Shown: positions 17,419 through 32,660 of the stretch, in pieces
Layout of the letters: every line of letters begins with the position of its first letter
Numbering within the stretch: the first letter of the stretch is position 1
Source: Spirochaetia bacterium
Lineage (GTDB): Bacteria > Spirochaetota > Spirochaetia > SZUA-6 > Bin103
Direction of reading: 5' to 3'
DNA length: 64,000 bases
NCBI GenBank assembly: GCA_965203905.1
Contig: CBDBDQ010000005.1
Location: 1,216,001 to 1,280,000 of the forward strand
Program-made: the position numbers and the translations under genes
Notes under the pieces: model-generated
What the model saw: the letters and a program-made list of their open reading frames with translations, nothing else
What the model was told of the DNA's origin: nothing
Databases searched by the model: none

Positions 17419-19125
17419 ATGGCTACGGTGGCTACCGCGACCCCTACCGGCTTCTCCTCCTCGCTCTCCGGGCTCCCCGACCAGGTGCTGCTGGCACACA
17501 CCAAGTCCCTCGTCCTGCACGAGCAGGCGCTGCAGCTCGCCGTCCTCGACCACCTGCGCGAGATCCACGCACGCCACCTCCACCTGCGCCTCGGGTTCTG
17601 CAGCCTGTTCGACTACGCGGTGCGGGAACTGGGCTACAGCGAAGGCGCCGCCTGGCGCCGCATAAAGGCCATGCGCCTGTGCTCCGATACCGACGGGACA
17701 CGCGAGCGGCTGCAGGACGGCTCGCTCACTCTGAGCGCGGCGGCGCAGTTGCAGAACACCTTCGATCTCCTGCAGCGCACGGCGATCGCCCCCGCGGACC
17801 CCGGCGCGGCGGCGGTGGCACCGGAGCTGCTGCCGGGCGCCACGGGGACGGCGCCGGAGGCGGGGGCTTCCGGGACCGCGGCAGCGGCGGCCGCGCGACC
17901 GGTGCCGGCGCTGGACGCGGCGCAGCGGCAGGAGCTGGTGGCGCAGGCGAGCGGCAAGAGCACCCGCGAGGTGAAGCAGTTGTTGGCCGGGGTGGCTCCC
18001 GAGCTGGCACGGCCGGCGGATCGCATGCGCGCGCTGGGCGAGGACCGCTGGGAGCTGAAGGTGGCGATCGACTCCGCCTGTCAGCGCGGGATCGAGCAGC
18101 TACGGGCCCTGCTGTCGCACGTGGACCCGCACCTGACGCTGGGGCAACTGGTGGAGCGGCTGGTGCAGGACGGCCTGCAGCGCTACGACCCGGGGCGGCC
18201 GCCGCGCGGGCGCAGAGGTGGGCGCCGGGAGGCAAGCACGGGCCAGGCGCCGGAGCCGACGACGCAGGAAGGCTCGGCGGGCGGGGCGACTTCGCCGGCG
18301 AAGCGGGACGCGCAAGAGCAACCCGGAGTGCCGACGCCGCCGGAGGGCACGAGCGCCGGCGGCAGCACCCCGGCGCCGGCAGCGCTGTCCGCAGAGGAAC
18401 CCGCGCGCGGGATTGGCCACGCCGGCCCCTCGGCGGTGGGCGCGCTGGCAGCGCCGCCGTTGGGGCGCGAGACTTGCGGCAGCAGCACGCCGATGAGTGC
18501 CAAGCCAGCGGCGGTGGCGACCGGTACCGCTACTTCGGCGGCGAAGTCAGTGGCCGATCGTGGGTCCCACGGCACCGTACCGGCGCCGCCGGCAGACCAG
18601 AGCAGGCCGACCGCGACGGCAGCGGCGGATTGCGGTCGCCACGCTCCTTCGCCAGCGAAGCCGGCAGGGGTGGCGCAGCGGGCAAGGGTGGCGCAACGGG
18701 CAGGGGTGGCGCAGCGGGCAGGGGTGGCGCAGCGGGCAGGGGTGGCGCAGCGGGCAGGGGTGGCGCAGCGGGTAAGGGTGGCGCAGCGGGCAGGAACGGC
18801 GCAGATCGATGGCCGTTCGGGGCCCCAGCCGCCGCCAGACGGCCTCTCCGGAGGCAGCGCGCAGCCGCCCCACCGGGCGCGTCGATCCCGCTACATTCCC
18901 GCACCGGTGAGGCGCGAGGTGTGGCGCCGCGACGGTGGCCGCTGCAGTTACGTCGATCCGCACAGCGGGCGGCGCTGCGGTTCCCACTTCCTACTGGAGC
19001 TCGACCACATCGTTCCCTTCGCGCTCGGCGGCGGTGCTGAGCCGGGTAATCTCAGGCTTCGTTGTTCTGCTCACCACCGCTTCCGCCATCGGGAGTACGG
19101 ATCGCCACCAGACGGGGCCACGTGA
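17419..19125 (+). CDS. Long HNH endonuclease with helical (DUF222/13E12-repeat-like) N-terminus
   Basis: LDHLREI..LGFCSLFDYAVRELGYSEGAAWRRIKAMRL; C-terminal IPAPVRREVWRRDGGRC..C..LELDHIVPFALGG..NLRLRCSAHH. Confidence 0.85.
   Translation: MATVATATPTGFSSSLSGLPDQVLLAHTKSLVLHEQALQLAVLDHLREIHARHLHLRLGFCSLFDYAVRELGYSEGAAWRRIKAMRLCSDTDGTRERLQDGSLTLSAAAQLQNTFDLLQRTAIAPADPGAAAVAPELLPGATGTAPEAGASGTAAAAAARPVPALDAAQRQELVAQASGKSTREVKQLLAGVAPELARPADRMRALGEDRWELKVAIDSACQRGIEQLRALLSHVDPHLTLGQLVERLVQDGLQRYDPGRPPRGRRGGRREASTGQAPEPTTQEGSAGGATSPAKRDAQEQPGVPTPPEGTSAGGSTPAPAALSAEEPARGIGHAGPSAVGALAAPPLGRETCGSSTPMSAKPAAVATGTATSAAKSVADRGSHGTVPAPPADQSRPTATAAADCGRHAPSPAKPAGVAQRARVAQRAGVAQRAGVAQRAGVAQRAGVAQRVRVAQRAGTAQIDGRSGPQPPPDGLSGGSAQPPHRARRSRYIPAPVRREVWRRDGGRCSYVDPHSGRRCGSHFLLELDHIVPFALGGGAEPGNLRLRCSAHHRFRHREYGSPPDGAT
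18664..18795 (+). repeat. 18-bp intragenic tandem repeat (AGVAQR x~7) in the HNH linker
   Basis: gcaggggtggcgcagcgg repeated; fewer units in the other HNH copies. Confidence 0.85.
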
Positions 19126-19758: not shown

Positions 19759-19999
19759 GACCGATCAACCAGCTTATGTGACCGTGCCGGGGCCGTCAAC
19801 GTGACGCCGCTCGCTCGCACTCCCGAGCCGGGCGCGGCTACGCGTGCTGAGGCGGCCGGCCGCCGGCAGTTCGGGCGATACTTCATGCTACTAGAGCCCT
19901 CCATTGCTCGTAATGAACAACGGCACGCGATTCGTGGCGCTTTGCCGTTGCGCCGTGGCGCCGGTTTCGTGGCTCGGCGTGGCGGGGTACTATCGACCG

Positions 20000-21546
20000 G
20001 TGGGCAAGCGCAGACTGCCGATCGGCATGCAGACCTTCCGCACGCTGCGGGAGCAGAACTGCTACTACGTCGACAAGACGCCCTACATCCGCCGCCTGCT
20101 CGACGAAGGCACGCACTACTTCCTGTCGCGGCCCCGCCGCTTCGGCAAGAGCCTGTTCCTGGACACGCTCAAGGAGCTGTTCGAGGGCAGCGAGGAGCTG
20201 TTCGCCGGGCTGCACATCCACGCCGGCCACGACTGGTCGCAACGCCATCCGGTGGTGCGGCTGAGCTTCGGTGGCGGCACCTTCCGGCGGTTGGACCTGC
20301 TGGAAGCGAACGTCATGGAGCAACTCGCCGCCGCAGAGCGGCGCCTGGGAGTGGAGTCCGAGTACCTGACCGCCGCGGGCCGCTTCGCGTATCTGCTGGA
20401 AGCCCTGCACCGGCAGACGGGACAGCGCGTCGCGGTGCTGGTGGACGAGTACGACAAGCCGATCCTGGACCTGCTGAAGGAACCGGAGGTGGCACTCGCC
20501 AACCGCGACTACCTGCGCGGGCTGTACGGCGTGATCAAGGACAGCGACGCGCACGTGCAGTTCACGTTCCTCACCGGCATCAGCAAGTTCTCGAAGGTGA
20601 ACCTGTTCTCGCAACTGAACAACCTCACCGACATCACGCTCGATCCCGTGTACTCCTCAGTGTGCGGGTACACGGAGGAAGATCTGGACACCGTGTTCGC
20701 TCCGGAACTCGCCGGACTCGACCGCGAGCAGGTGCGGGAGTGGTACAACGGCTACCGCTGGCGTGGCGACGAGAAGGTCTACAATCCCTACGATGTGCTC
20801 CTGTTGCTGCGCGGTCGCGAATTCGATGCGCATTGGTTCGAGACCGGGACGCCGGCGTTCCTCGTGGACACGCTTTTCGACCGCCGCGTGTCCTCGGTGT
20901 CGCTGGGCGAGATGGTGACCACGGGGGGCTGCTGTCGGCGTTCGACGTCGATCACATCGGCACCGAGGCACTGCTGTTCCAGACCGGCTACCTGACGATT
21001 ACGGGAGAAGAGCGACTGGGCGGCAAGGCGCTCTTCCGGCTGGGCTATCCCAACCGGGAGGTGCGCCAGAGCCTGAACGAGTACCTGTTGCGTCACCTGG
21101 TGCAGGACACGACGCAGCAGACGGCCAACGGCATGCGCCTGGCGCGCCTCCTGCAAACGCACGACTGCACCGGCCTGAAAGCGCTGTTCCACGCCTTCTT
21201 CGCCAGCATTCCGTACCATTGGTACACCAACAATGACATCGCCAACTACGAGGGCTTCTACGCCAGCGTGTTCTACTCCTACTTTGCCGCGCTCGGCTAC
21301 GAGATCGCCGTGGAAGAGGCGAGCAGCCACGGGCGCCTGGACATGGCGCTGCGCACCGGCGGTCACGTCTACCTGTTCGAATTCAAGGTGGTGGAGCTGG
21401 CGCCGCCAGGGGCGGCGCTGGCGCACCTCCAGGAGCGCCGCTACGCCGACAAGTACCGCGCCACGGGCGAGCCGATCCACCTGATCGGCGTCGAATTCAG
21501 CCGCGACACCCGCAACGTAACCGCGTTCGAAGTGGCGGACGGCTGA
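20000..21546 (+). pseudogene. AAA/PD-(D/E)XK gene with a -1 frameshift in the G run at 20923-20928
   Basis: GTG 20000 to 20995 and frame-shifted 3' part to 21546; acggggggctg versus acggaggacctg in the paralog. Confidence 0.85.
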
Positions 21547-21730: not shown

Positions 21731-22549
21731 TTACAACGGCTCGGAGTTGTCACGGTCGCGCAGCCGCGCTTCGAGTTCGGCGATTCGCGCCTCCGCCGCC
21801 TGCCGGGCCTCCCGTTCCTGCCGGCGACCCTGTTCGGCGTGCTGGCGCGCGTCCCGCTCCCGCCGACGATCCTGCTCGGCCCGGCGCCACCGCTGCTCCG
21901 CCCGTTCGCGCGCCTGCAGCTCCCGCTCCCACCTCTGCTCGGCCTCCTGCCACGCCGCGTCCGTCTCCCCGAGGTCCGGCAGATCGCGCCCCGTCATCGG
22001 ATCGTGGAACCGCAGCCCGCGCTCCGTCAGCCGCAACTCCAACTCCAGCACCGCGCTCCTCAGCACCAGCGTCCCGTCCCCATGCTCCCGTTCCGGCAGC
22101 CTCGCGTACTCCCCTGCCACCAACTCCAGTCCCTGCAACGCCGGCTCCAGGTAGTCCCCCGTCGGGTCGTACTGCCAGTACTCCCGCACCCCGAGCCTCT
22201 CGTACAGCCTGCGCTTCTTTCCCTGGTCTTCCCGCCGCGTGCTGCGCGACGTCACCTCCAGCACGAAGTCCGGCCCCTTCGGCTCCTCCCACAGCACGTA
22301 GCTCGTTCGCTTCCGCCGCGGCGCGCCCAGCACCACGAACACATCCGGCGCCACTCGCTCCCGCGTCCCTTCCTCGTAGTAGATCAACAGGTTCCCCGCC
22401 ACGTACACGTCCTCGCGCTCGCGATAGTGTTCCCGCAGCCGGTTCGCGGCATAGGTCAGCGGGATGAACTGGTGATCGCTCTCCGCCACCGGCCGGCCGT
22501 CCGACGAGGGGTATTCAACCTGGGCGGGAGCGAGTACCGAGCTTGCCAT
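21731..22549 (-). CDS. Uma2-family endonuclease with C-terminal coiled coil
   Basis: VEYPSSDGRPVAESD.Q, VAPDVFVV, PDFVLEVTSRST..D.G.K..LY..LGVREYWQYDP; AGGAGG RBS. Confidence 0.9.
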   Translation of the reverse strand: MASSVLAPAQVEYPSSDGRPVAESDHQFIPLTYAANRLREHYREREDVYVAGNLLIYYEEGTRERVAPDVFVVLGAPRRKRTSYVLWEEPKGPDFVLEVTSRSTRREDQGKKRRLYERLGVREYWQYDPTGDYLEPALQGLELVAGEYARLPEREHGDGTLVLRSAVLELELRLTERGLRFHDPMTGRDLPDLGETDAAWQEAEQRWERELQARERAEQRWRRAEQDRRRERDARQHAEQGRRQEREARQAAEARIAELEARLRDRDNSEPL

Positions 22550-22876
22550 CACGGTCCCTCCTGACCACCTCAGCATACCACGCCGCGGTCGCCACGAGAA
22601 TCCTGCCGGGGCCGCGGTGCCGGCCTCCGCGATCGGCGAGGTGCCTGAAGATGTTGCGAACCATACCCTCTACAACGGGCGCCGGTTCGCCCGCGCTTTC
22701 AGGAACCTGTGTTCGACGTGAAGTCGGTCGAGATCCTGAGTCGGGCGTGCCTGGACCGCTACCAGGAGAAGAGTGCGCTCTAAGAGTTGATCGCCGAGCT
22801 CTGCCGCTGACTCCGCTACGCCGGCTACGCCGTGGCGCCGGTTTCGTGGCTCGGCGTGGCGGGGTACTATCGGCCG

Positions 22877-24424
22877 GTGGGCAAGCGCAGACTGCCGATC
22901 GGCATGCAGACCTTCCGCACGCTGCGGGAGCAGAACTGCTACTACGTCGACAAGACGCCCTACATCCGCCGCCTGCTCGACGAAGGCACGCACTACTTCC
23001 TGTCGCGGCCCCGCCGCTTCGGCAAGAGCCTGTTCCTGGACACGCTCAAGGAGCTGTTCGAGGGCAGCGAGGAGCTGTTCGCCGGGCTGCACATCCACGC
23101 CGGCCACGACTGGTCGCAACGCCATCCGGTGGTGCGGCTGAGCTTCGGTGGCGGCACCTTCCGGCGGTTGGACCTGCTGGAAGCGAACGTCATGGAGCAA
23201 CTCGCCGCCGCAGAGCGGCGCCTGGGAGTGGAGTCCGAGTACCTGACCGCCGCGGGCCGCTTCGCGTATCTGCTGGAAGCCCTGCACCGGCAGACGGGAC
23301 AGCGCGTCGCGGTGCTGGTGGACGAGTACGACAAGCCGATCCTGGACCTGCTGAAGGAACCGGAGGTGGCACTCGCCAACCGCGACTACCTGCGCGGGCT
23401 GTATGGCGTGATCAAGGACAGCGACGCGCACGTGCGGTTCACGTTCCTCACCGGCATCAGCAAGTTCTCGAAGGTGAACCTGTTCTCGCAACTGAACAAC
23501 CTCACCGACATCACGCTCGATCCCGTGTACTCCTCAGTGTGCGGGTACACGGAGGAAGATCTGGACACCGTGTTCGCTCCGGAGCTCGCCGGACTGGACC
23601 GGGAGCAGGTGCGGGAGTGGTACAACGGCTATAGCTGGCTAGGCGACGAGAGGGTGTACAACCCCTACGACGTGCTGCTACTGCTGCGCCGCGGCAGGTT
23701 CGCCGCGCACTGGTTCGAGACCGGGACGCCGGCATTCCTGGTGGAGACGCTGTTCGAACGTCACGTCTCCTCGGTGTCGCTGGGCGACCTGGTTAGCACG
23801 GAGGACCTGCTGTCGACATTCGACGTGGAGCACATCGGCACCGAGGCGCTGCTGTTCCAGACCGGCTACCTGACCATCACCGGGGAAGAGGACTTGGTCG
23901 GGGAGCCGCTATACCGGCTTGGCTATCCGAACCGGGAAGTACGCCAGAGCCTGAACCGCGTGCTGCTACGCCACCTGGTGCAGGACGCAGGACAACAGAC
24001 GGCCAACAGCACGCGCTTGGCGCGGCTGCTGGAGGCGCACGACTGCGCCGGCCTCCAGGAGCTGTTCCACGCCTTCTTCGCCAGCATTCCCTACCATTGG
24101 TACACCAACAACCACATCGCCAACTACGAGGGCTTCTACGCCAGCGTGTTCTACTCCTACTTTGCTGCGCTCGGCTATGAGATCGCCGTGGAAGAGGCGA
24201 GCAGCCGCGGCCGCCTGGACATGGCGGTGCGCACCGGCGGGCACGTCTACCTGTTCGAGTTCAAGGTAGTCGAGATGACGCCGGACGGTTCGGCGCTGGC
24301 GCAGTTGCAGGAGCGCCGCTACGCCGACAAGTACCGCGCCCGCGGCGAGCCGATCCACCTGATCGGCGTCGAGTTCAGCCGCGACGCGCGCAACGTCACC
24401 GCGTTCGAAGTGGCGGACGGCTGA
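22877..24424 (+). CDS. AAA-ATPase-like protein with PD-(D/E)XK nuclease (intact copy)
   Basis: Same motifs as 400-1950; GTG 6 nt after TACTAT. Confidence 0.9.
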   Translation: MGKRRLPIGMQTFRTLREQNCYYVDKTPYIRRLLDEGTHYFLSRPRRFGKSLFLDTLKELFEGSEELFAGLHIHAGHDWSQRHPVVRLSFGGGTFRRLDLLEANVMEQLAAAERRLGVESEYLTAAGRFAYLLEALHRQTGQRVAVLVDEYDKPILDLLKEPEVALANRDYLRGLYGVIKDSDAHVRFTFLTGISKFSKVNLFSQLNNLTDITLDPVYSSVCGYTEEDLDTVFAPELAGLDREQVREWYNGYSWLGDERVYNPYDVLLLLRRGRFAAHWFETGTPAFLVETLFERHVSSVSLGDLVSTEDLLSTFDVEHIGTEALLFQTGYLTITGEEDLVGEPLYRLGYPNREVRQSLNRVLLRHLVQDAGQQTANSTRLARLLEAHDCAGLQELFHAFFASIPYHWYTNNHIANYEGFYASVFYSYFAALGYEIAVEEASSRGRLDMAVRTGGHVYLFEFKVVEMTPDGSALAQLQERRYADKYRARGEPIHLIGVEFSRDARNVTAFEVADG

Positions 24425-25031: not shown

Positions 25032-26672
25032 ATGGCTGCCGCGACCGCTGCCGGCTTCGCCTCCTCGCTCTCCGGGCTCCCCGACCAGGTACTGCTGGCG
25101 CATACCAAGTCCCTCGTCCTGCACGAGCAGGCGCTGCAGCTCGCCGTCCTCGACCACCTGCGCGAGATCCACGCCCGCCACCTCCACCTGCGCCTCGGGT
25201 TCTCCAGCCTGTTCGACTACGCGGTGCGCGAACTGGGATATAGCGAGGGTGCCGCGTGGCGCCGTATCAAAGCCATGCGCCTGTGCTCCGAGACCGCCGG
25301 GTCACGCGAGCTGCTGCAGGACGGCTCGCTCACCTTGAGCGCGGCGGCGCAGTTGCAAAACACCTTCGATCTCCTGCAGCGCACGGCGACCGCCGCCGTG
25401 GACCCCGGCTCGCCACCCGCGGCACCCGAGCTGCTGCCGGGCGCCACGGGGACGGCGCCGGAGGCGGGGGCTTCCGGGGCCGCGGCAGCGGCGCCCGCGC
25501 CACCGGTGCCGGCGCTGGACGCGGCGCAGCGGCAGGAGCTGGTGGCGCAGGCGAGCGGCAAGAGCACCCGCGAGGTGAAGCAGTTGCTGGCCGGGGTGGC
25601 TCCCGAGCTGGCGCGGCCGGCTGATCGCATGCGGGCGCTGGGCGAGGGCCGCTGGGAGCTGAAGGTAGTGATCGACGCCGCCTGTCAGCGCGGGATCGAG
25701 CAGCTACGGGCCCTGCTGTCGCACGTGGACCCGCACCTGACGCTGGGGCAACTGGTGGAGCGCCTGGTGCAGGACGGCCTGCAGCGCTACGACCCGGGGC
25801 GACCGCCGCGCGGGCGCAGAGGTGGTGGGCGCCGGGAGGCAAGCGTGGGCCAGGCGCCGGAGCCGAAGGCGCAGCAAGGGCCGGTGGGCGGGGCGGCTTC
25901 GCCGGCGAAGTCGGGCGTGCAAGAGCAAGCCGGAGTGCCGACGCCGTCGGAGGGCACGAGCGCCGGTGGCAGCACCCCGGCGCCGGCAGCGCTGTCCGCA
26001 GAGGAACCCGCGCGCGGGATTGGCGGCGCCGGTACCTCGGCGGTGGGCGCGCTGGCAGCGCCGCCGTTGGGGCGCGAGACTTGCGGCAGCAGCACGCCGG
26101 TGAGTGCCAAGCCAGCGGCGGCGGCGACCGGTACCGCTACTTCGTCGGCGAAGTCGGTGGCCGATCGTGGGTCCCACGGCACCGTACCGACGCCACGGGC
26201 GACGCCGGCGGCGGACCAGAGCATGCCGGCCGCGCTGGCAGCGGCGGATCGCGGTCGCAACGCTGCTTCGCCAGAGAAGCGCGCAGGGGTGGCGCAGCGG
26301 GCACGGGGGACGTAGCGGGCACGGGCGACGCGGCGGGCAGGAACGGCGCGGCTCAATGGCCGTTCGGGTCCGCAGGCGGCGGCAGCCGGCCTCTCCGGAG
26401 GCAGCGCGCAGCCGCCCCACCGGGCGCATCGATCCCGGTACATTCCGGCACCGGTGAGGCGCGAGGTGTGGCGCCCCGACGGTGGCTGCTGCAGTTACGT
26501 CGATCCGCACAGCGGGCGGCGCTGCGGGTCCCGCTTCCTGCTGGAGCTCGACCACATCGTTCCCTTCGCGCTTGGCGGCAGCGCCGAGCCGGGGAATTTG
26601 AGGCTGCATTGTGCAGCTCACCACCGCTTCCGGCATCGAGAGTACGGATCGCCGCCAGACGGGGCCACGTGA
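25032..26672 (+). pseudogene. HNH endonuclease copy 2, interrupted by an in-frame stop at 26313-26315
   Basis: Near-identical N-terminus to 17419; HNH domain lies downstream of the stop (ORF 26454-26672). Confidence 0.8.
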
Positions 26673-26771
26673 TCGGCGCTCGCCGAGGTGCAAGTTGGGC
26701 GGTTGGGCGTCGGTCCGAGGGCACGGGGAGCAACGATTTGCAGCCGGCTTGTCGCGCCGCGTGGGAAGTTC

Positions 26772-27234
26772 TCACGGGAACAGAGCTGCCAGCACCCTCT
26801 GCATCACGGGAACCAGGATCGTCGCGGCTACCAGAACGGTCAGCAACCAGCGGGTCTGTACGGTGATCTCCTTGCGCACCTCGCCGACCTCCTTGCGCAC
26901 CTCGCCGATCGCGATCTCCTCCGTGAGGTCCGCCCGCACATTGGCGATCTCCTTTCCCAGGTTTGCCGATCTGTTCCTGGTGCTCAAGGAACTGTTTCTG
27001 CACGCCCATGAAGCCGGCGTGCATCTCAACCCGCAACGCCTCGAAACCGGTGTGCATCTCGCCACGCACCGCCTCGTCCGAGTCCGCAACCCGGCGCGCA
27101 AAGCGCTCCTCCACCACGCTTATCAGCTCTTCGCGCTGGTCGCGGCCAAACTCATGCAGCAGCTCCACCAGCGAATCGGTGGCCGCCTCGCCCAGCCTCT
27201 CGCGCAACTCACGTCGTACGGAGATCACCGCCAT
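26772..27234 (-). pseudogene. DUF1640-like coiled-coil gene copy 2, 1-nt frameshift near 26962
   Basis: N-terminus MAVISVRRELRERL and C-terminus QTRWLLTVL in different frames; extra T in gttt. Confidence 0.8.
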
Positions 27235-27291
27235 GACCGATCAACCAGCCTATGCGACCGTGCCGGGGCCGTCAACGCGACGCCGCTCGCT

Positions 27292-27480
27292 GGGTGCATT
27301 CCGGTATTGTGGCGCCAGCCGCCAGAGAGCACGCGCGGGATTGGATCGCAGCGAATACAAGCATGCCTACCACAAATGGGAATGCCCGCCCGGACGGACG
27401 CGCCCTGACCGCAGCCCTTCCGGTCGTGCCGGCCACCACGATTGTCTCCGGCCGCCCGCGTAATCGGGGTGATTGCACCC
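27292..27480. mobile_element. MITE-like element copy A
   Basis: Left end gggtgcattc, right end gattgcaccc (imperfect TIR); direct repeat of 28583-28795; preceded by ccgctcgct and followed by cttgatgat. Confidence 0.75.
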
Positions 27481-27528
27481 CTTGATGATGGCGCGCGGCA
27501 GGTAGGGCGGCAGGCGGCTCCTGGCCGG

Positions 27529-28530
27529 CTACCGGCGGTGCAGACGCTTCCGGAAGTCGGCCTCGCTGACGCAGGCGGTGGCGGCCGCGACGATGGCGTG
27601 GCGGGGTAGTTCGGCGAAGCCGGGCACGCCGGGGAATCCGGGCGAGAGCACGATGCCGCGCGCCCCCAACAGCGCTCGTGCAAACTCGATGCGTTCTTCC
27701 GCGCGACCTTCGGCATGACCTTCCGCGCGGCTGCGGCGGCGCTGCGCGCCCAGCAGGGGGTCGTCGTCCGGGCCGGTGCCCTCCCGCTCCCCGAGCGCCG
27801 CTCCCACCCGCTCCAGTACCGCGCTGGTCGGCACCGAAAGCGTGTCCTCGTTCAACGCCACGTGGATCTCCGCCGCCGTCCAGCCAGGAAACGCCCGGCT
27901 CTGCCCCACCTGCCGATACGCCCCATCCTCCAGCAGGTGGATGGTCAGCCCCGAGCGCCGGCTCCGCGGCCGGCTCGGCGCACCCGCATCGGGCACCTCG
28001 ATCCACACTTCCGGGAACCCCCACGCCTCGTACTGCGGCAGCTTGCGCCGGCGCGCGTCGGTGCTGTGGTCCACTTCCAGCACCACCTCCGGGAAGTCGT
28101 GCTCGCCGACCGTCAGCACCGGACGCGGCAACCGCGCGCGCGCCGGGTGCAGGTACACCAACTCGTCCGCCTGCATGATGAGGCGCGCCTTGCCGTGCGC
28201 GTCGCGCTCGGTCAGGTCGGTGCTGCCGAGGCACTTCACCGGCGCGCCGCGCACCTGGGAAATGAGCTTGGCCGACTCCGTCAAGAGGCGCGTGGGGCCT
28301 TCGTGATAGGAGCTCACCGGATCGCAGATCCAGGCGGTCTCGGAGACGGTGTCCCAGTACTCCAGCCGGATCTCGCAGTCGTCGAGTTCCTCGCGCGGCA
28401 GGCGCACCGGCTTGCAGCCGGGGAAGTCCGCCGCCGTGGGCGGCTGGACGCCGGGCGCCGGGTCCGCGGGCTGAGCCGGTCCCGGGGCCGGCGCCTCGAC
28501 CTGCGGACCGAGCGTGCGTACCGAAGCCAT
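27529..28530 (-). CDS. Uma2-family endonuclease (divergent subtype)
   Basis: RLEYWD, H.GP, MQADE.VY, PEVVLEVDHSTDARRRKLPQYEAWGFPEVW; RAEGHAEGRAE tail; TACCGT 6 nt before the ATG. Confidence 0.8.
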   Translation of the reverse strand: MASVRTLGPQVEAPAPGPAQPADPAPGVQPPTAADFPGCKPVRLPREELDDCEIRLEYWDTVSETAWICDPVSSYHEGPTRLLTESAKLISQVRGAPVKCLGSTDLTERDAHGKARLIMQADELVYLHPARARLPRPVLTVGEHDFPEVVLEVDHSTDARRRKLPQYEAWGFPEVWIEVPDAGAPSRPRSRRSGLTIHLLEDGAYRQVGQSRAFPGWTAAEIHVALNEDTLSVPTSAVLERVGAALGEREGTGPDDDPLLGAQRRRSRAEGHAEGRAEERIEFARALLGARGIVLSPGFPGVPGFAELPRHAIVAAATACVSEADFRKRLHRR

Positions 28531-28582
28531 GCCGGCACGGTACGGCATTCCCCCGGCCCGCTGCAACCGCGCGCTCGATGAT

Positions 28583-28795
28583 GGGTGCATTCCGGTATTG
28601 GTGGTGCCAGCGTGGGATTGGATCGCGGCGAACACAAGCGTGCCTACCACAAATGGGAATGCCCCCGGACGGACGCGCCCTGACCGCAGCCCTCTCGGTC
28701 GTGTTCGCCACCACGATTGTCTCCGGCCGCCCGCTTCATCGGGGTGACACCGGTAGTATCGGTACCGTGCGCTACCACACAGAAAGAATGCACCC
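28583..28795. mobile_element. MITE-like element copy B
   Basis: gggtgcattc...gaatgcaccc perfect 10-bp TIR; preceded by ctcgatgat and followed by ccgctcgct. Confidence 0.8.
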
Positions 28796-29017
28796 CCGCT
28801 CGCTCGCACTCCTGAGCCGGGCGCGGCTTCGTGCGCTGAGGCGGACGGCCGCCGGCACTTCGGGCGATACTTCATGCTACTAGAGCCCTCCATTGCTCGT
28901 AATGAACAACGGCACGCGATTCGTGGCGCTTTGCAGGAAGGAGGCGAGGCGTGAGCGAAGGCCGGCAGGTGCCTGGCGAGAGCCGCCGGCCGGTCACCGG
29001 CAACAAAGGTGGAGTGG

Positions 29018-29282
29018 AACCTCACCGACATCACGCTCGATCGGCGTGGAAGAGGGGAGCAGCCACGGACGCCTGGACATGGCGCTGCGCACCGGCGGGC
29101 ACGTCTACCTGTTTGAGTTCAAGGTGGTGGAGTTGGCGCCGCCGGGAGCGGCGCCGGCGCAACTCCAGGAGCGCCGCTACGCCGACAAGTACCGCGCCAC
29201 GGGCGAGCCGATCCACCTGATCGGCGTCGAGTTCAGCCGCGACACCCGCAACGTAACCGCATTCGAAGTGGCGGCCGGCTGA
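29018..29282 (+). pseudogene. AAA/PD-(D/E)XK remnant (short mid-gene block fused to the nuclease C-terminus)
   Basis: aacctcaccgacatcacgctcgatc joined at gatc to ..gtggaagag; same junction at 32213-32245. Confidence 0.8.
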
Positions 29283-29315: not shown

Positions 29316-30260
29316 TCAGGCCCGCGAGGCGGGATCGAAGCGGGCGAGGAACTTGGCGGCGGTGTCGCAGCGCACCAGCCAGTCACCGACCTCGGCCAGC
29401 CGTTCCGGGTCGGCGATCGGCGCCAGCAGGTCGGCCAGGCGGGCGGCGGTGTCGGCATCGAAGCGCGCCGCCGCCTGCCGGCACAGCAGTGTCCGCTGCT
29501 GGTCGACCCCCTGGGTAAGGCCTTCCGCAAGGCCTTGTTCGCGGCCCTCCCGGAGCCATTGCTTGGGCCACTCGGCGACCCGTTCCACCAACGACATACT
29601 CGCCTCCTCCAGCGTCCGTACCGGTGCCACCACGAACCCGCGCCGCAACTCCTCCGCGCCACGCTTCGGCAACCAGCGCTGCAACGCCCCCACCACCCGC
29701 TCGACCTCCTCCCATGACCGGCTCTGCTCCAGCCGCGCCACCGCGCGCAGCAGGTTGCGGTACGGCAGATCATCCGCCGCCACCCGCTGCAGGTCAAGCA
29801 GGTAGTAGCGCTGCGCCGGCTGATACGGCGCCAGCCACCGCCCCACCGGCGTGATCAGTGCGCGCATCTCCGGGGCTGCGGTCCACGGTTCGGTGCCGTT
29901 GTAGAGCACCACCGGCAGCACCGCCGGGAGCCGCTCGCCAGCCACCTCCGGGGCCCGGCTGCGTATCAGTTCCTGGTACAGCAGTCCGCTGTAGTTGAGG
30001 ATGCGCAACGCCATCCAGCGATCATCCTGCGCCTGGAACTCCAGCAGCAACAGAAACACCCGGCGCCGGCCCAGCCGCAGGTGCCAGACGGTGTCGCCGT
30101 GGCGCTTGCGCAGTTCATCGCTGATGTACTCGGGAGAGAGCTTCCCCAGGCTGGAGAAGTCCGCGGCCGCCAGCCGGGGCGCGGGCAGGCAGGCGCGCAG
30201 CACATCCCCGACCATGAGCGGGGAGGCGAACAGGCGCTTGTAGTTCTCGTCGTGCAGCAT
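29316..30260 (-). CDS. Rpn-family recombination-promoting nuclease (YhgA/PD-(D/E)XK) with DUF4351-like tail
   Basis: HDENYKRLF, RHGDTVW, LLEFQAQDDRWMALR..Y, LPAVLPVVLYNG, EGREQG..LCRQAAARF; may carry an internal deletion. Confidence 0.85.
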   Translation of the reverse strand: MLHDENYKRLFASPLMVGDVLRACLPAPRLAAADFSSLGKLSPEYISDELRKRHGDTVWHLRLGRRRVFLLLLEFQAQDDRWMALRILNYSGLLYQELIRSRAPEVAGERLPAVLPVVLYNGTEPWTAAPEMRALITPVGRWLAPYQPAQRYYLLDLQRVAADDLPYRNLLRAVARLEQSRSWEEVERVVGALQRWLPKRGAEELRRGFVVAPVRTLEEASMSLVERVAEWPKQWLREGREQGLAEGLTQGVDQQRTLLCRQAAARFDADTAARLADLLAPIADPERLAEVGDWLVRCDTAAKFLARFDPASRA

Positions 30261-31930: not shown

Positions 31931-32212
31931 GACCGATCAACCAGCTTATGCGACCGTGCCGGGGCGGTCAACGTGACGCCGCTCGCTCGCTTGCTTGCTC
32001 GCACTCCTGAGCCGGGCGCGGCTTCGTGCGCTGAGGCGGACGGCCGCCGGCAGTTCGGGCGATACTTCATGCTACAAGAGCCCTCCATTGCTCGTAATGA
32101 ACAACGGCACGCGATTCGTGGCGCTTTGCAGGAAGGAGGCGAGGCGTGAGCGAAGGCCGGCAGGAGCCTGGCGAGAGCCGCCGGCCGGTCACCGGCAACG
32201 AAGGTGGAGTGG

Positions 32213-32660
32213 AACCTCACCGACATCACGCTCGATCGCCGTGGAAGAGGCGAGCAGCCGCGGCCGCCTGGACATGGCGGTGCGCACCGGCGGGCACGTC
32301 TACCTGTTCGAGTTCAAGGTGGTGGAGTTGGCGCCGCCGGGAGCGGCGCTGGCGCAACTCCAGGAGCGCCGCTACGCCGAGCAGCTACTGGCACACTGCT
32401 GTCGCACGTGGACCCGCACCTGACGCTGGGGCAACTGGTGGCGCGGCTGGTGCAGGACGGCCTGCAGCGCTCCGACCCGGGGCGGCCGCCGCGCGGGCGC
32501 AGAGGTGGACGCCGGGAGGCAAGCGCGGACCAGGCGCGGGAGCCCAAGCCGCAGGAATGGCCGGCGGGCGGGGCGACTTCGCTGGCGAAGCGGGATGCGC
32601 AAGGGCAACCCCGAGTGCCGCCGCCGCCGGAGGGCACGAGCGCCGGTGGCGGCACCCCGC
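32213..32660 (+). pseudogene. Chimeric remnant: PD-(D/E)XK C-terminal fragment fused to an HNH-gene fragment
   Basis: ..gagcgccgctacgccga|gcagctac..ctgctgtcgcacgtggacccgcac junction near 32380. Confidence 0.75.

Follow-up and report, generated by a model that had tools for sequence, protein, structure and literature searches.

The window analysed here is a 64,000-bp stretch from a Spirochaetia bacterium (assembly GCA_965203905.1, contig CBDBDQ010000005.1, positions 1,216,001 to 1,280,000). At 27292-28795 it carries a Uma2-type nuclease gene bracketed by two MITEs (miniature inverted-repeat transposable elements), A and B. The source genome (G000) has 7.99 Mb, and its contig with the window is called C5 below. 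The 1,504 bp are one insertion, flanked at 27283-27291 and 28796-28804 by the perfect 9-bp target site duplication (TSD) CCGCTCGCT. MITE A (189 bp, gggtgcattcc...gattgcaccc) lies on the plus strand, with its left end at 27292 and its right end at 27480. MITE B (213 bp, gggtgcattcc...gaatgcaccc) occupies 28583-28795 on the same strand, with its left end at 28583 facing the Uma2 promoter region. Both MITEs start with GGGTGCATTCC and are in direct orientation; A ends in a G(A/T)TTGCACCC-type sequence and B in GAATGCACCC. A repeat search found three blocks common to them, of 19 nt (100% identity), 55 nt (93%) and 84 nt (92%).

The DNA between the MITEs is a cassette of one gene. The Uma2 gene (27529-28530, minus strand) encodes a putative PD-(D/E)XK endonuclease of 333 aa. 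It is the sole long open reading frame with a high G+C content at third codon positions, and a transposase gene is absent from the unit. Promoter-like elements precede it at 28531-28566 on the minus strand (TTGCAG at 28566-28561, an 18-nt spacer, TACCGT at 28542-28537, 6 nt, ATG), so that the cassette is predicted to carry its own promoter, as the initial annotation had proposed. The mRNA is probably leaderless. A 9-bp repeat borders the cassette on each side, with the left copy CTTGATGAT at 27481-27489 and the right copy CTCGATGAT at 28574-28582. The latter is at the place expected for the TSD if an element had inserted upstream of Uma2 in the promoter-directed manner. Next to the repeats are the two arms of a split palindrome, CCGCGCGC (28567-28574) and GCGCGCGG (27491-27498, 30 nt past the Uma2 stop codon), which are exact reverse complements. 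Reading the sequence confirmed all the coordinates of TSDs, MITEs, inner repeats and arms given in the initial annotation.

The empty target site is preserved within the window. The left and right flanks of the insert overlap by 9 bp at 19807-19815 in a sister module at 19.8 kb, and an alignment shows a single CCGCTCGCT there. The site is also present in the sister module at 32.0 kb (~31987), where it contains a short GCT(C/T) repeat expansion, a GCT-rich run at 31987-31999. In a sample of 2,000,000 random position pairs with this spacing, 9-mers matching at 8/9 positions or better were seen in 639 and complementary 8-nt arms in 113. The nested layout is not explained by chance.

Promoter-directed insertion of the ISKra4-type elements

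The MITEs are real elements, and the autonomous partner that the initial annotation expected for them is present. It is an insertion sequence (IS) of 1,558 bp at C5:2122481-2124038 with the 9-bp TSD CCAGGATTG and a 468-aa transposase. The transposase scores 239.6 bits against the NCBIfam ISKra4 model (NF033572, cut-off 205); its only Pfam match is a sub-threshold one to UPF0236. GGGTGCATTC and GAATGCACCC lie at the outer ends of both the window unit and this IS, and the similarity continues past the 10-mer. A and B are non-autonomous members of this ISKra4-type family.

The source genome contains 38 copies of the 10-bp end GGGTGCATTC. Genome-wide pairing of ends gave five elements with a 9-bp TSD at no more than one mismatch: the window unit, the full IS and three units of 2.2-2.5 kb with an HNH gene. 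The five target sequences are mutually dissimilar and none is like CTCGATGAT. The MITE family is rare. A BLAST search with A and B found six places, namely A and B themselves, a 72-bp mini copy, a solo copy of ~95 bp and two fragments. The length variants keep both ends, and internal deletions account for their differences.

At least four elements with HNH genes, of 2.2-2.5 kb, have the same ISKra4-type ends (C5:3696708-3699172, 4835789-4838013, 5227230-5229446 and 6513240-6515721). Three have the 9-bp TSD counted above, and the TSD of 5227230-5229446 agrees at 7/9 positions on reading. We dissected C5:3696708-3699172, which consists of a truncated left part of the IS, captured DNA, a gene for a 443-aa HNH-domain protein and a 225-bp MITE. 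The remaining elements share these ends, and the sequence next to their inner left end is also the same. The HNH gene is a second nuclease cargo of this ISKra4-type IS family.

Insertion of the family follows the position of promoters. We classed the 38 GGGTGCATTC sites as 20 left ends, 9 right ends and 9 others. Before counting, six identical inner ends of HNH composites and three Uma2-adjacent ends were dropped from the left ends, and 13 independent ones were kept. Five of these 13 match TTGACA at 5/6 positions or better at exactly offset 16, and in three of the five the hexamer is perfect (background 0.2%, binomial p 4e-11). At the level of at least 4/6, six of the 13 left ends match at this offset and none of the nine right ends does. 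Other offsets between 8 and 25 have at most one match at the 5/6 level. The ISKra4-family IS in this genome inserts 16 bp upstream of -35 boxes of the sigma-70 type, with its left end facing the promoter. Several elements of the ISKra4 group are reported to insert upstream of sigma-A promoters in a conserved orientation, 13-17 bp from the inverted repeat, and duplications of 8-9 bp are given for the superfamily (PMC3942029).

Both window MITEs fit this rule, with -35-like hexamers 16 bp from the left end of A (TTGACG) and of B (TTGCAG). Leftward from 27292, the sequence reads AGCGAGCGG-CGTCGCG-TTGACG-N17-TAGGCT-N12-ATG, leading into the neighbour gene 26353-27234 on the minus strand. Its promoter-like region and start codon span 27232-27275 on that strand, with TTGACG at 27275-27270, a 17-nt spacer, TAGGCT at 27252-27247 and the ATG at 27234-27232. 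Leftward from 28583, it reads ATCATCGAG-CGCGCGG-TTGCAG-N18-TACCGT-N6-ATG of Uma2. The locus would therefore hold two promoters, each with an ISKra4-type left end facing it; both are predicted from these hexamers and their spacing.

Cassette copies and their junctions

A BLAST search with the unit found four further near-complete copies in the source genome, 92-96% identical to the window unit, at C5:1213867, 1866044, 2302652 and 6032852 (c1213, c1866, c2303 and c6033 below). The Uma2 reading frame is intact in all five copies (331-343 aa). Aligned with their flanks, the five are homologous from C(C/T)TCGATGAT-G-GCGCGCGG to CCGCGCG-CTCGATGAT, and the junctions are identical to the base; the left inner repeat, CTTGATGAT in the window, is CTCGATGAT in the other four copies. 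Because CTCGATGAT junctions occur in all five copies, the inner repeats, on this comparison, predate the insertion in the window.

MITE ends, whether whole, truncated or reduced to stubs, remain at four of the five copies; the fifth has no MITE. c1866 has the 72-bp mini-MITE on its left and a 10-bp stub of a left end on its right. c1213 has on its left an 11-bp stub of a right end, inside an Rpn-like gene; on its right is a MITE whose junction is deleted. c2303 is bounded on the left by the upstream edge of a gene pair for a nucleotidyltransferase and a HEPN protein, and on the right by a 23-bp stub of a left end. c6033 has no IS bases on either side. Of 24 genomes of the same family, only the source genome gave a match to the MITE-cassette junction pattern.

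MITE A of the window is closer to MITEs at other loci than to B. A and B agree at 154 of 173 aligned bases (89%) and differ in addition by three indels, whereas A matches the mini-MITE of c1866 at 69/71 positions and the right MITE of c1213 at 64/67. A and B are therefore not sister copies from one replicative event at the window locus. Judging by the same alignments, the unit arrived ready-assembled.

A maximum likelihood tree of 16 sequences groups the five copies as a clade (support 94/100) with the order (c6033,((win,c1213),(c1866,c2303))). The window cassette is 98% identical to that of c1213. c6033 is the first to branch (support 87/95), and MITE-less copies from a relative, G018, form the sister clade.

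The MITE-less copy c6033 (C5:6032853-6033977) reads TGTCAA-GAGGAGG-GCTCGGCCT-CAACTTGGC-CTCGATGAT(cassette)CTCGATGAT-GCTCGGCTG. The outer sequences GCTCGGCCT and GCTCGGCTG agree at 7/9 positions, and the left one lies exactly 7 bp from a perfect TTGACA on the other strand (TGTCAA). A distance of 7 bp from the -35 box is the expected place of an ISKra4-type duplication. We read this as a sign that c6033, too, arrived between two MITEs and that both were lost afterwards, cleanly on its right side. The promoter-placed outer duplication therefore makes the absence of MITEs look secondary. A Smith-Waterman search for decayed MITE remnants beside c6033 gave scores not above those of shuffled sequences. 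Empty sites for c6033 and c2303 were sought in relatives; the flanking genes are conserved, the intergenic DNA is not alignable and none was readable.

The spacer in which c6033 lies is a recurrent landing site. In G008 (C191), the orthologous intergenic region, which has divergent promoters, carries a different MITE with a GGGTGCATTCC end, and in G003 the orthologous spacer holds an unrelated insertion of two genes. The nucleotidyltransferase/HEPN pair beside c2303 (C5:2303802 onward) has several copies in G001, G004, G005 and G006. Its homology always begins at one base, ~7 bp upstream of the -35 expected relative to an extended -10 (TGGTATTCT). The pair may be another discrete mobile cassette.

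Relatives also bear on the split palindrome. The initial annotation had rebuilt a hairpin from the inner flanks and expected intact copies in a circular or tandem context. The arms are indeed exact complements, and the palindrome was probably once whole. A Uma2 homologue in G023 (79% amino acid identity) has CAACCGCGCCGCGCTCGATGGCGCGCGCCGG directly upstream of a -35-like TTGAAG, with an intact CGCGC-TCGATG-GCGCG palindrome that folds as a hairpin of -11.7 kcal/mol (DNA parameters). In G018 and G023, Uma2 homologues have the left arm conserved upstream of them. The cassette copies of G018 have one arm past the 3' end, arranged as in the window; their homology stops inside the same nine bases or at the border of these, and they have no IS ends. 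The expected context was not seen: an intact hairpin beside Uma2 in a tandem or circular arrangement was found neither in the 24 family genomes nor in a scan of metagenome contigs. A looser palindrome pattern has 27 matches in these genomes, of which only the G023 locus, which is non-tandem, adjoins a Uma2 gene. The pattern of the rebuilt 23-nt hairpin matched 27 loci in metagenome contigs, none with a Uma2 match by blastn or tblastn. A scan of genome contigs with the 17-mer AACCGCGCGCTCGATGA was set aside; it gave 120 loci, none homologous to the cassette, and the pattern is too unspecific for GC-rich genomes. We also dropped an integron gene cassette as an explanation, as the 25-nt palindrome has no GTTRRRY-type or attC-like core on reading; no integrase search was made.

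Uma2 genes are numerous in this family. Uma2-type nuclease genes occur in very many copies in some bacterial phyla, and we know of no accepted explanation for these high copy numbers. In this family, a search gave matches in 22 of 41 genomes, often at 10-15 places each. The window protein scores 23.4 bits against Pfam Uma2 (PF05685), below the cut-off of 27 bits; for many close homologues PF05685 is on record, and the name given by some sources is ‘Uma2 family endonuclease’. The part of the gene encoding the C-terminal region (27690-27720) contains 12-nt units coding for AEGH or AEGR, with 2 to 5 units across the five copies. Uma2 genes of the present lineage stand head-to-tail in G020, G022 and G023, where neighbouring units are ~1.0-1.5 kb apart. 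In G018, five units are interspersed over 19 kb, and the source genome has one diverged pair ~1.7 kb apart. The arrays in G020, G023, G022 and G018 comprise 3-9 paralogues, and several different spacer types alternate within one array. A more distant copy with 85% identity (G000:C5:3334606-3335630) is flanked by diverged direct repeats of ~70 bp with the appearance of a host gene's 3' end; it resembles an element that restores the end of an interrupted gene.

The window region as a whole is rich in nuclease-type selfish genes. Repeated modules at 369-1945, 19904-20995, 22832-24424, 28893-29282 and 31995-32423 encode AAA-ATPase_like and PDDEXK_9 proteins or fragments of them. Their neighbours include another Uma2 gene (21731-22576), a gene for an HNH protein (17419-19125) and a Transposase_31/Rpn-like gene (29316-30260).

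Origin of the unit and its implications

We consider it fairly likely that 27292-28795 is a pre-formed, MITE-bounded composite transposon around a promoter-plus-Uma2 cassette, and not a captured circle. The transposase of autonomous ISKra4 copies would act in trans on the left end of A and the right end of B. The unit would then insert 16 bp upstream of the -35 box of gene 26353-27234, making the 9-bp duplication at the family's usual target and in its usual orientation. The inner CTYGATGAT repeats would be older TSDs, made when ISKra4-type elements inserted 16 bp upstream of the Uma2 -35 box, in the loop of the palindrome. Since the second arm lies past the 3' end of the same gene, a further copy of the promoter-upstream sequence would have followed the gene in the ancestor; the simplest such arrangement is a head-to-tail Uma2 array in which every spacer holds the palindrome. 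The unit was probably assembled when MITEs homed to the repeated Uma2 promoters of such an array. Each promoter would attract a MITE to the same loop and in the same orientation, giving identical 9-bp duplications around unlike MITE variants with no need for a circle. Any two neighbouring MITEs would then form a mobile MITE-gene-MITE unit. The initial annotation held that nested duplications of this kind could not come from a composite transposon. That argument fails here, since the target of ISKra4-type elements is set by the promoter, and repeated promoters therefore yield the same duplication and the same orientation.

Several observations weigh against this composite-transposon reading. 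It does not predict the three copies with only 10-, 11- or 23-bp stubs of IS ends, nor the nine unexplained bases that c6033 keeps on its left side. The outer duplication of c6033, at 7/9, is modest evidence. Seven of the 13 independent left ends have no -35 match at offset 16. A strict sigma-70 consensus scanner called no promoter in 27150-28900, because the -10 hexamers match TATAAT only at TAnnnT; the Uma2 -35 matches at 3/6 positions. The spacers in the arrays of relatives are unrelated to the hairpin, and an array with intact CCGCGCGC-TCGATGATG-GCGCGCGG spacers was not found. With up to three mismatches, the hairpin matched in one of the 24 family genomes (G010), in a coding-like region and not beside Uma2.

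The nested structure could also have started from an ancient insertion of a single MITE in the hairpin loop of a circular or tandem Uma2 unit, followed by a duplication, after which the composite diverged and spread by ordinary composite transposition, reaching the window site among others. The duplication might be a cointegrate, a translocatable-unit-like step or an unequal crossover, and would leave two initially identical MITEs. The exact 9-bp length of the inner repeat, which is the TSD length of the family, is consistent with this history. The right stub of c2303 and the right MITE of c1213 are A-like where B differs, and the ancestral MITEs may have been alike. Circular intermediates, with ends separated by 6-10 flank-derived bases, are reported for the ISKra4 superfamily (PMC3942029). 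We nevertheless regard such a history as unlikely, as it needs a duplication step that promoter homing makes unnecessary.

Contig joints bear on the same question. We examined the contigs of four of 24 runs, all of them assembled (Logan contigs), in which rare circles are not visible. The listed joints 27291 to 28798, 27356 to 27491, 27447 to 28751 and 28575 to 27390 correspond to junctions of the sister module, the mini-MITE and c1213. The joint 28788 to 27474, from runs X1 and X19, connects a B-type right end to the left end of the cassette and reflects another organism or strain in which the left MITE is full-length; such a joint would also fit the single-MITE history. Genomic paralogues explain the listed joints, and none of those listed in these assembled contigs is a circle junction. 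Abutted right and left ends (GAATGCACCC-N0-20-GGGTGCATTC) occur in 0 of the 24 family genomes.

It was also considered that the Uma2 cassette is itself mobile through its 8-bp inverted arms and the CTCGATGAT core, for example if a circular form were cleaved in the hairpin loop, perhaps by the Uma2 nuclease, in which case the MITE association would be secondary. The early branching of the MITE-less c6033, the sister position of the MITE-less G018 copies and the break of their homology at the same nine bases all point in this direction. However, the cassette would have to land exactly between two MITE ends, and an intact hairpin beside Uma2 was found in one non-tandem case only (G023, one of the 27 pattern matches). 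The promoter-placed outer duplication of c6033 is typical of an ISKra4 insertion, and with c6033 read as a unit that lost its MITEs, the case for an autonomously mobile cassette loses its main argument. We judge this mode of spread improbable. Least probable, and strongly disfavoured, is the proposal of the initial annotation taken literally, in which a ~1.1-kb circle with Uma2 and one MITE was fused at the window site by replicative transposition: it accommodates the nested duplications, the rebuilt palindrome and the empty site in the sister modules, but A and B should have started identical and are now 89% alike with A nearer to MITEs at two other loci, while the cassette differs by only ~2% from the copy nearest to it and the outer TSD has no mismatch, four other loci have the same inner junctions, and no listed contig joint corresponds to a circle.

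The unit can be compared with known systems. IS26-type translocatable units and cointegrates, to which the initial annotation had likened the locus, share the element-cargo-element order, the direct orientation and the outer duplication. The IS26-type route yields two identical element copies, whereas the window MITEs are not identical. For the ISKra4 superfamily, circular intermediates are reported and not Shapiro-type cointegrates (PMC3942029). Within this superfamily, the ISKra4 group of prokaryotic Mutator-like transposons (p-MULT 4, with TnGBS and ISLre2) resembles the present family in that its transposase model is passed and the TSD has 9 bp, and in its fixed-orientation insertion upstream of promoters, at a reported 13-17 bp compared with 16 bp here (PMC3942029). 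The window elements differ from it in being non-autonomous, with an interior unrelated to the IS, and in being paired around a cargo gene. The available sections of PMC3942029 contain no mention of MITE-bounded composites. Such composites are already known in other families, as promoter-directed insertion is in the ISKra4 group. In the TIME-COMPs of the Tn3 family (PMC4133298, PMC13367494) and in a MITE-flanked integron of Acinetobacter (PMC3934969), two non-autonomous copies are reported to bracket a cargo and to move with it as a single unit, with one outer duplication and a transposase acting in trans. These involve a different IS family and carry resistance genes, compared with a single nuclease gene with its own predicted promoter here. 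Unlike in these composites, the window MITEs would have been placed by promoter homing, which would explain their direct orientation and the identical inner duplications. Among the papers listed in our literature search, judged from their listings, none links Uma2 genes to MITE-bounded or mobile elements.

In a new genome, our analysis independently recovers the promoter-directed insertion described for part of the ISKra4 group. It also shows that identical duplications in a nested layout do not have to come from a cointegrate if the target of the element is a repeated promoter. The locus provides a concrete vehicle, in which non-autonomous derivatives of a promoter-seeking IS family bracket a complete promoter-plus-gene unit and would move it. 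Tentatively, and as a possibility we hold with less than even confidence, promoter-homing ISKra4-type MITEs might be a packaging system for small selfish genes. Genes in arrays could become bracketed, self-expressed mobile cassettes, and loss of the MITEs could leave naked cassettes with 9-bp direct repeats, such as the one at C5:6032853-6033977. The same packaging may set the sharp upstream boundary of the HEPN/nucleotidyltransferase pair beside c2303 and may carry the HNH genes. If this is true, packaging would offer Uma2 and similar nuclease genes a general way to multiply and spread through these genomes.

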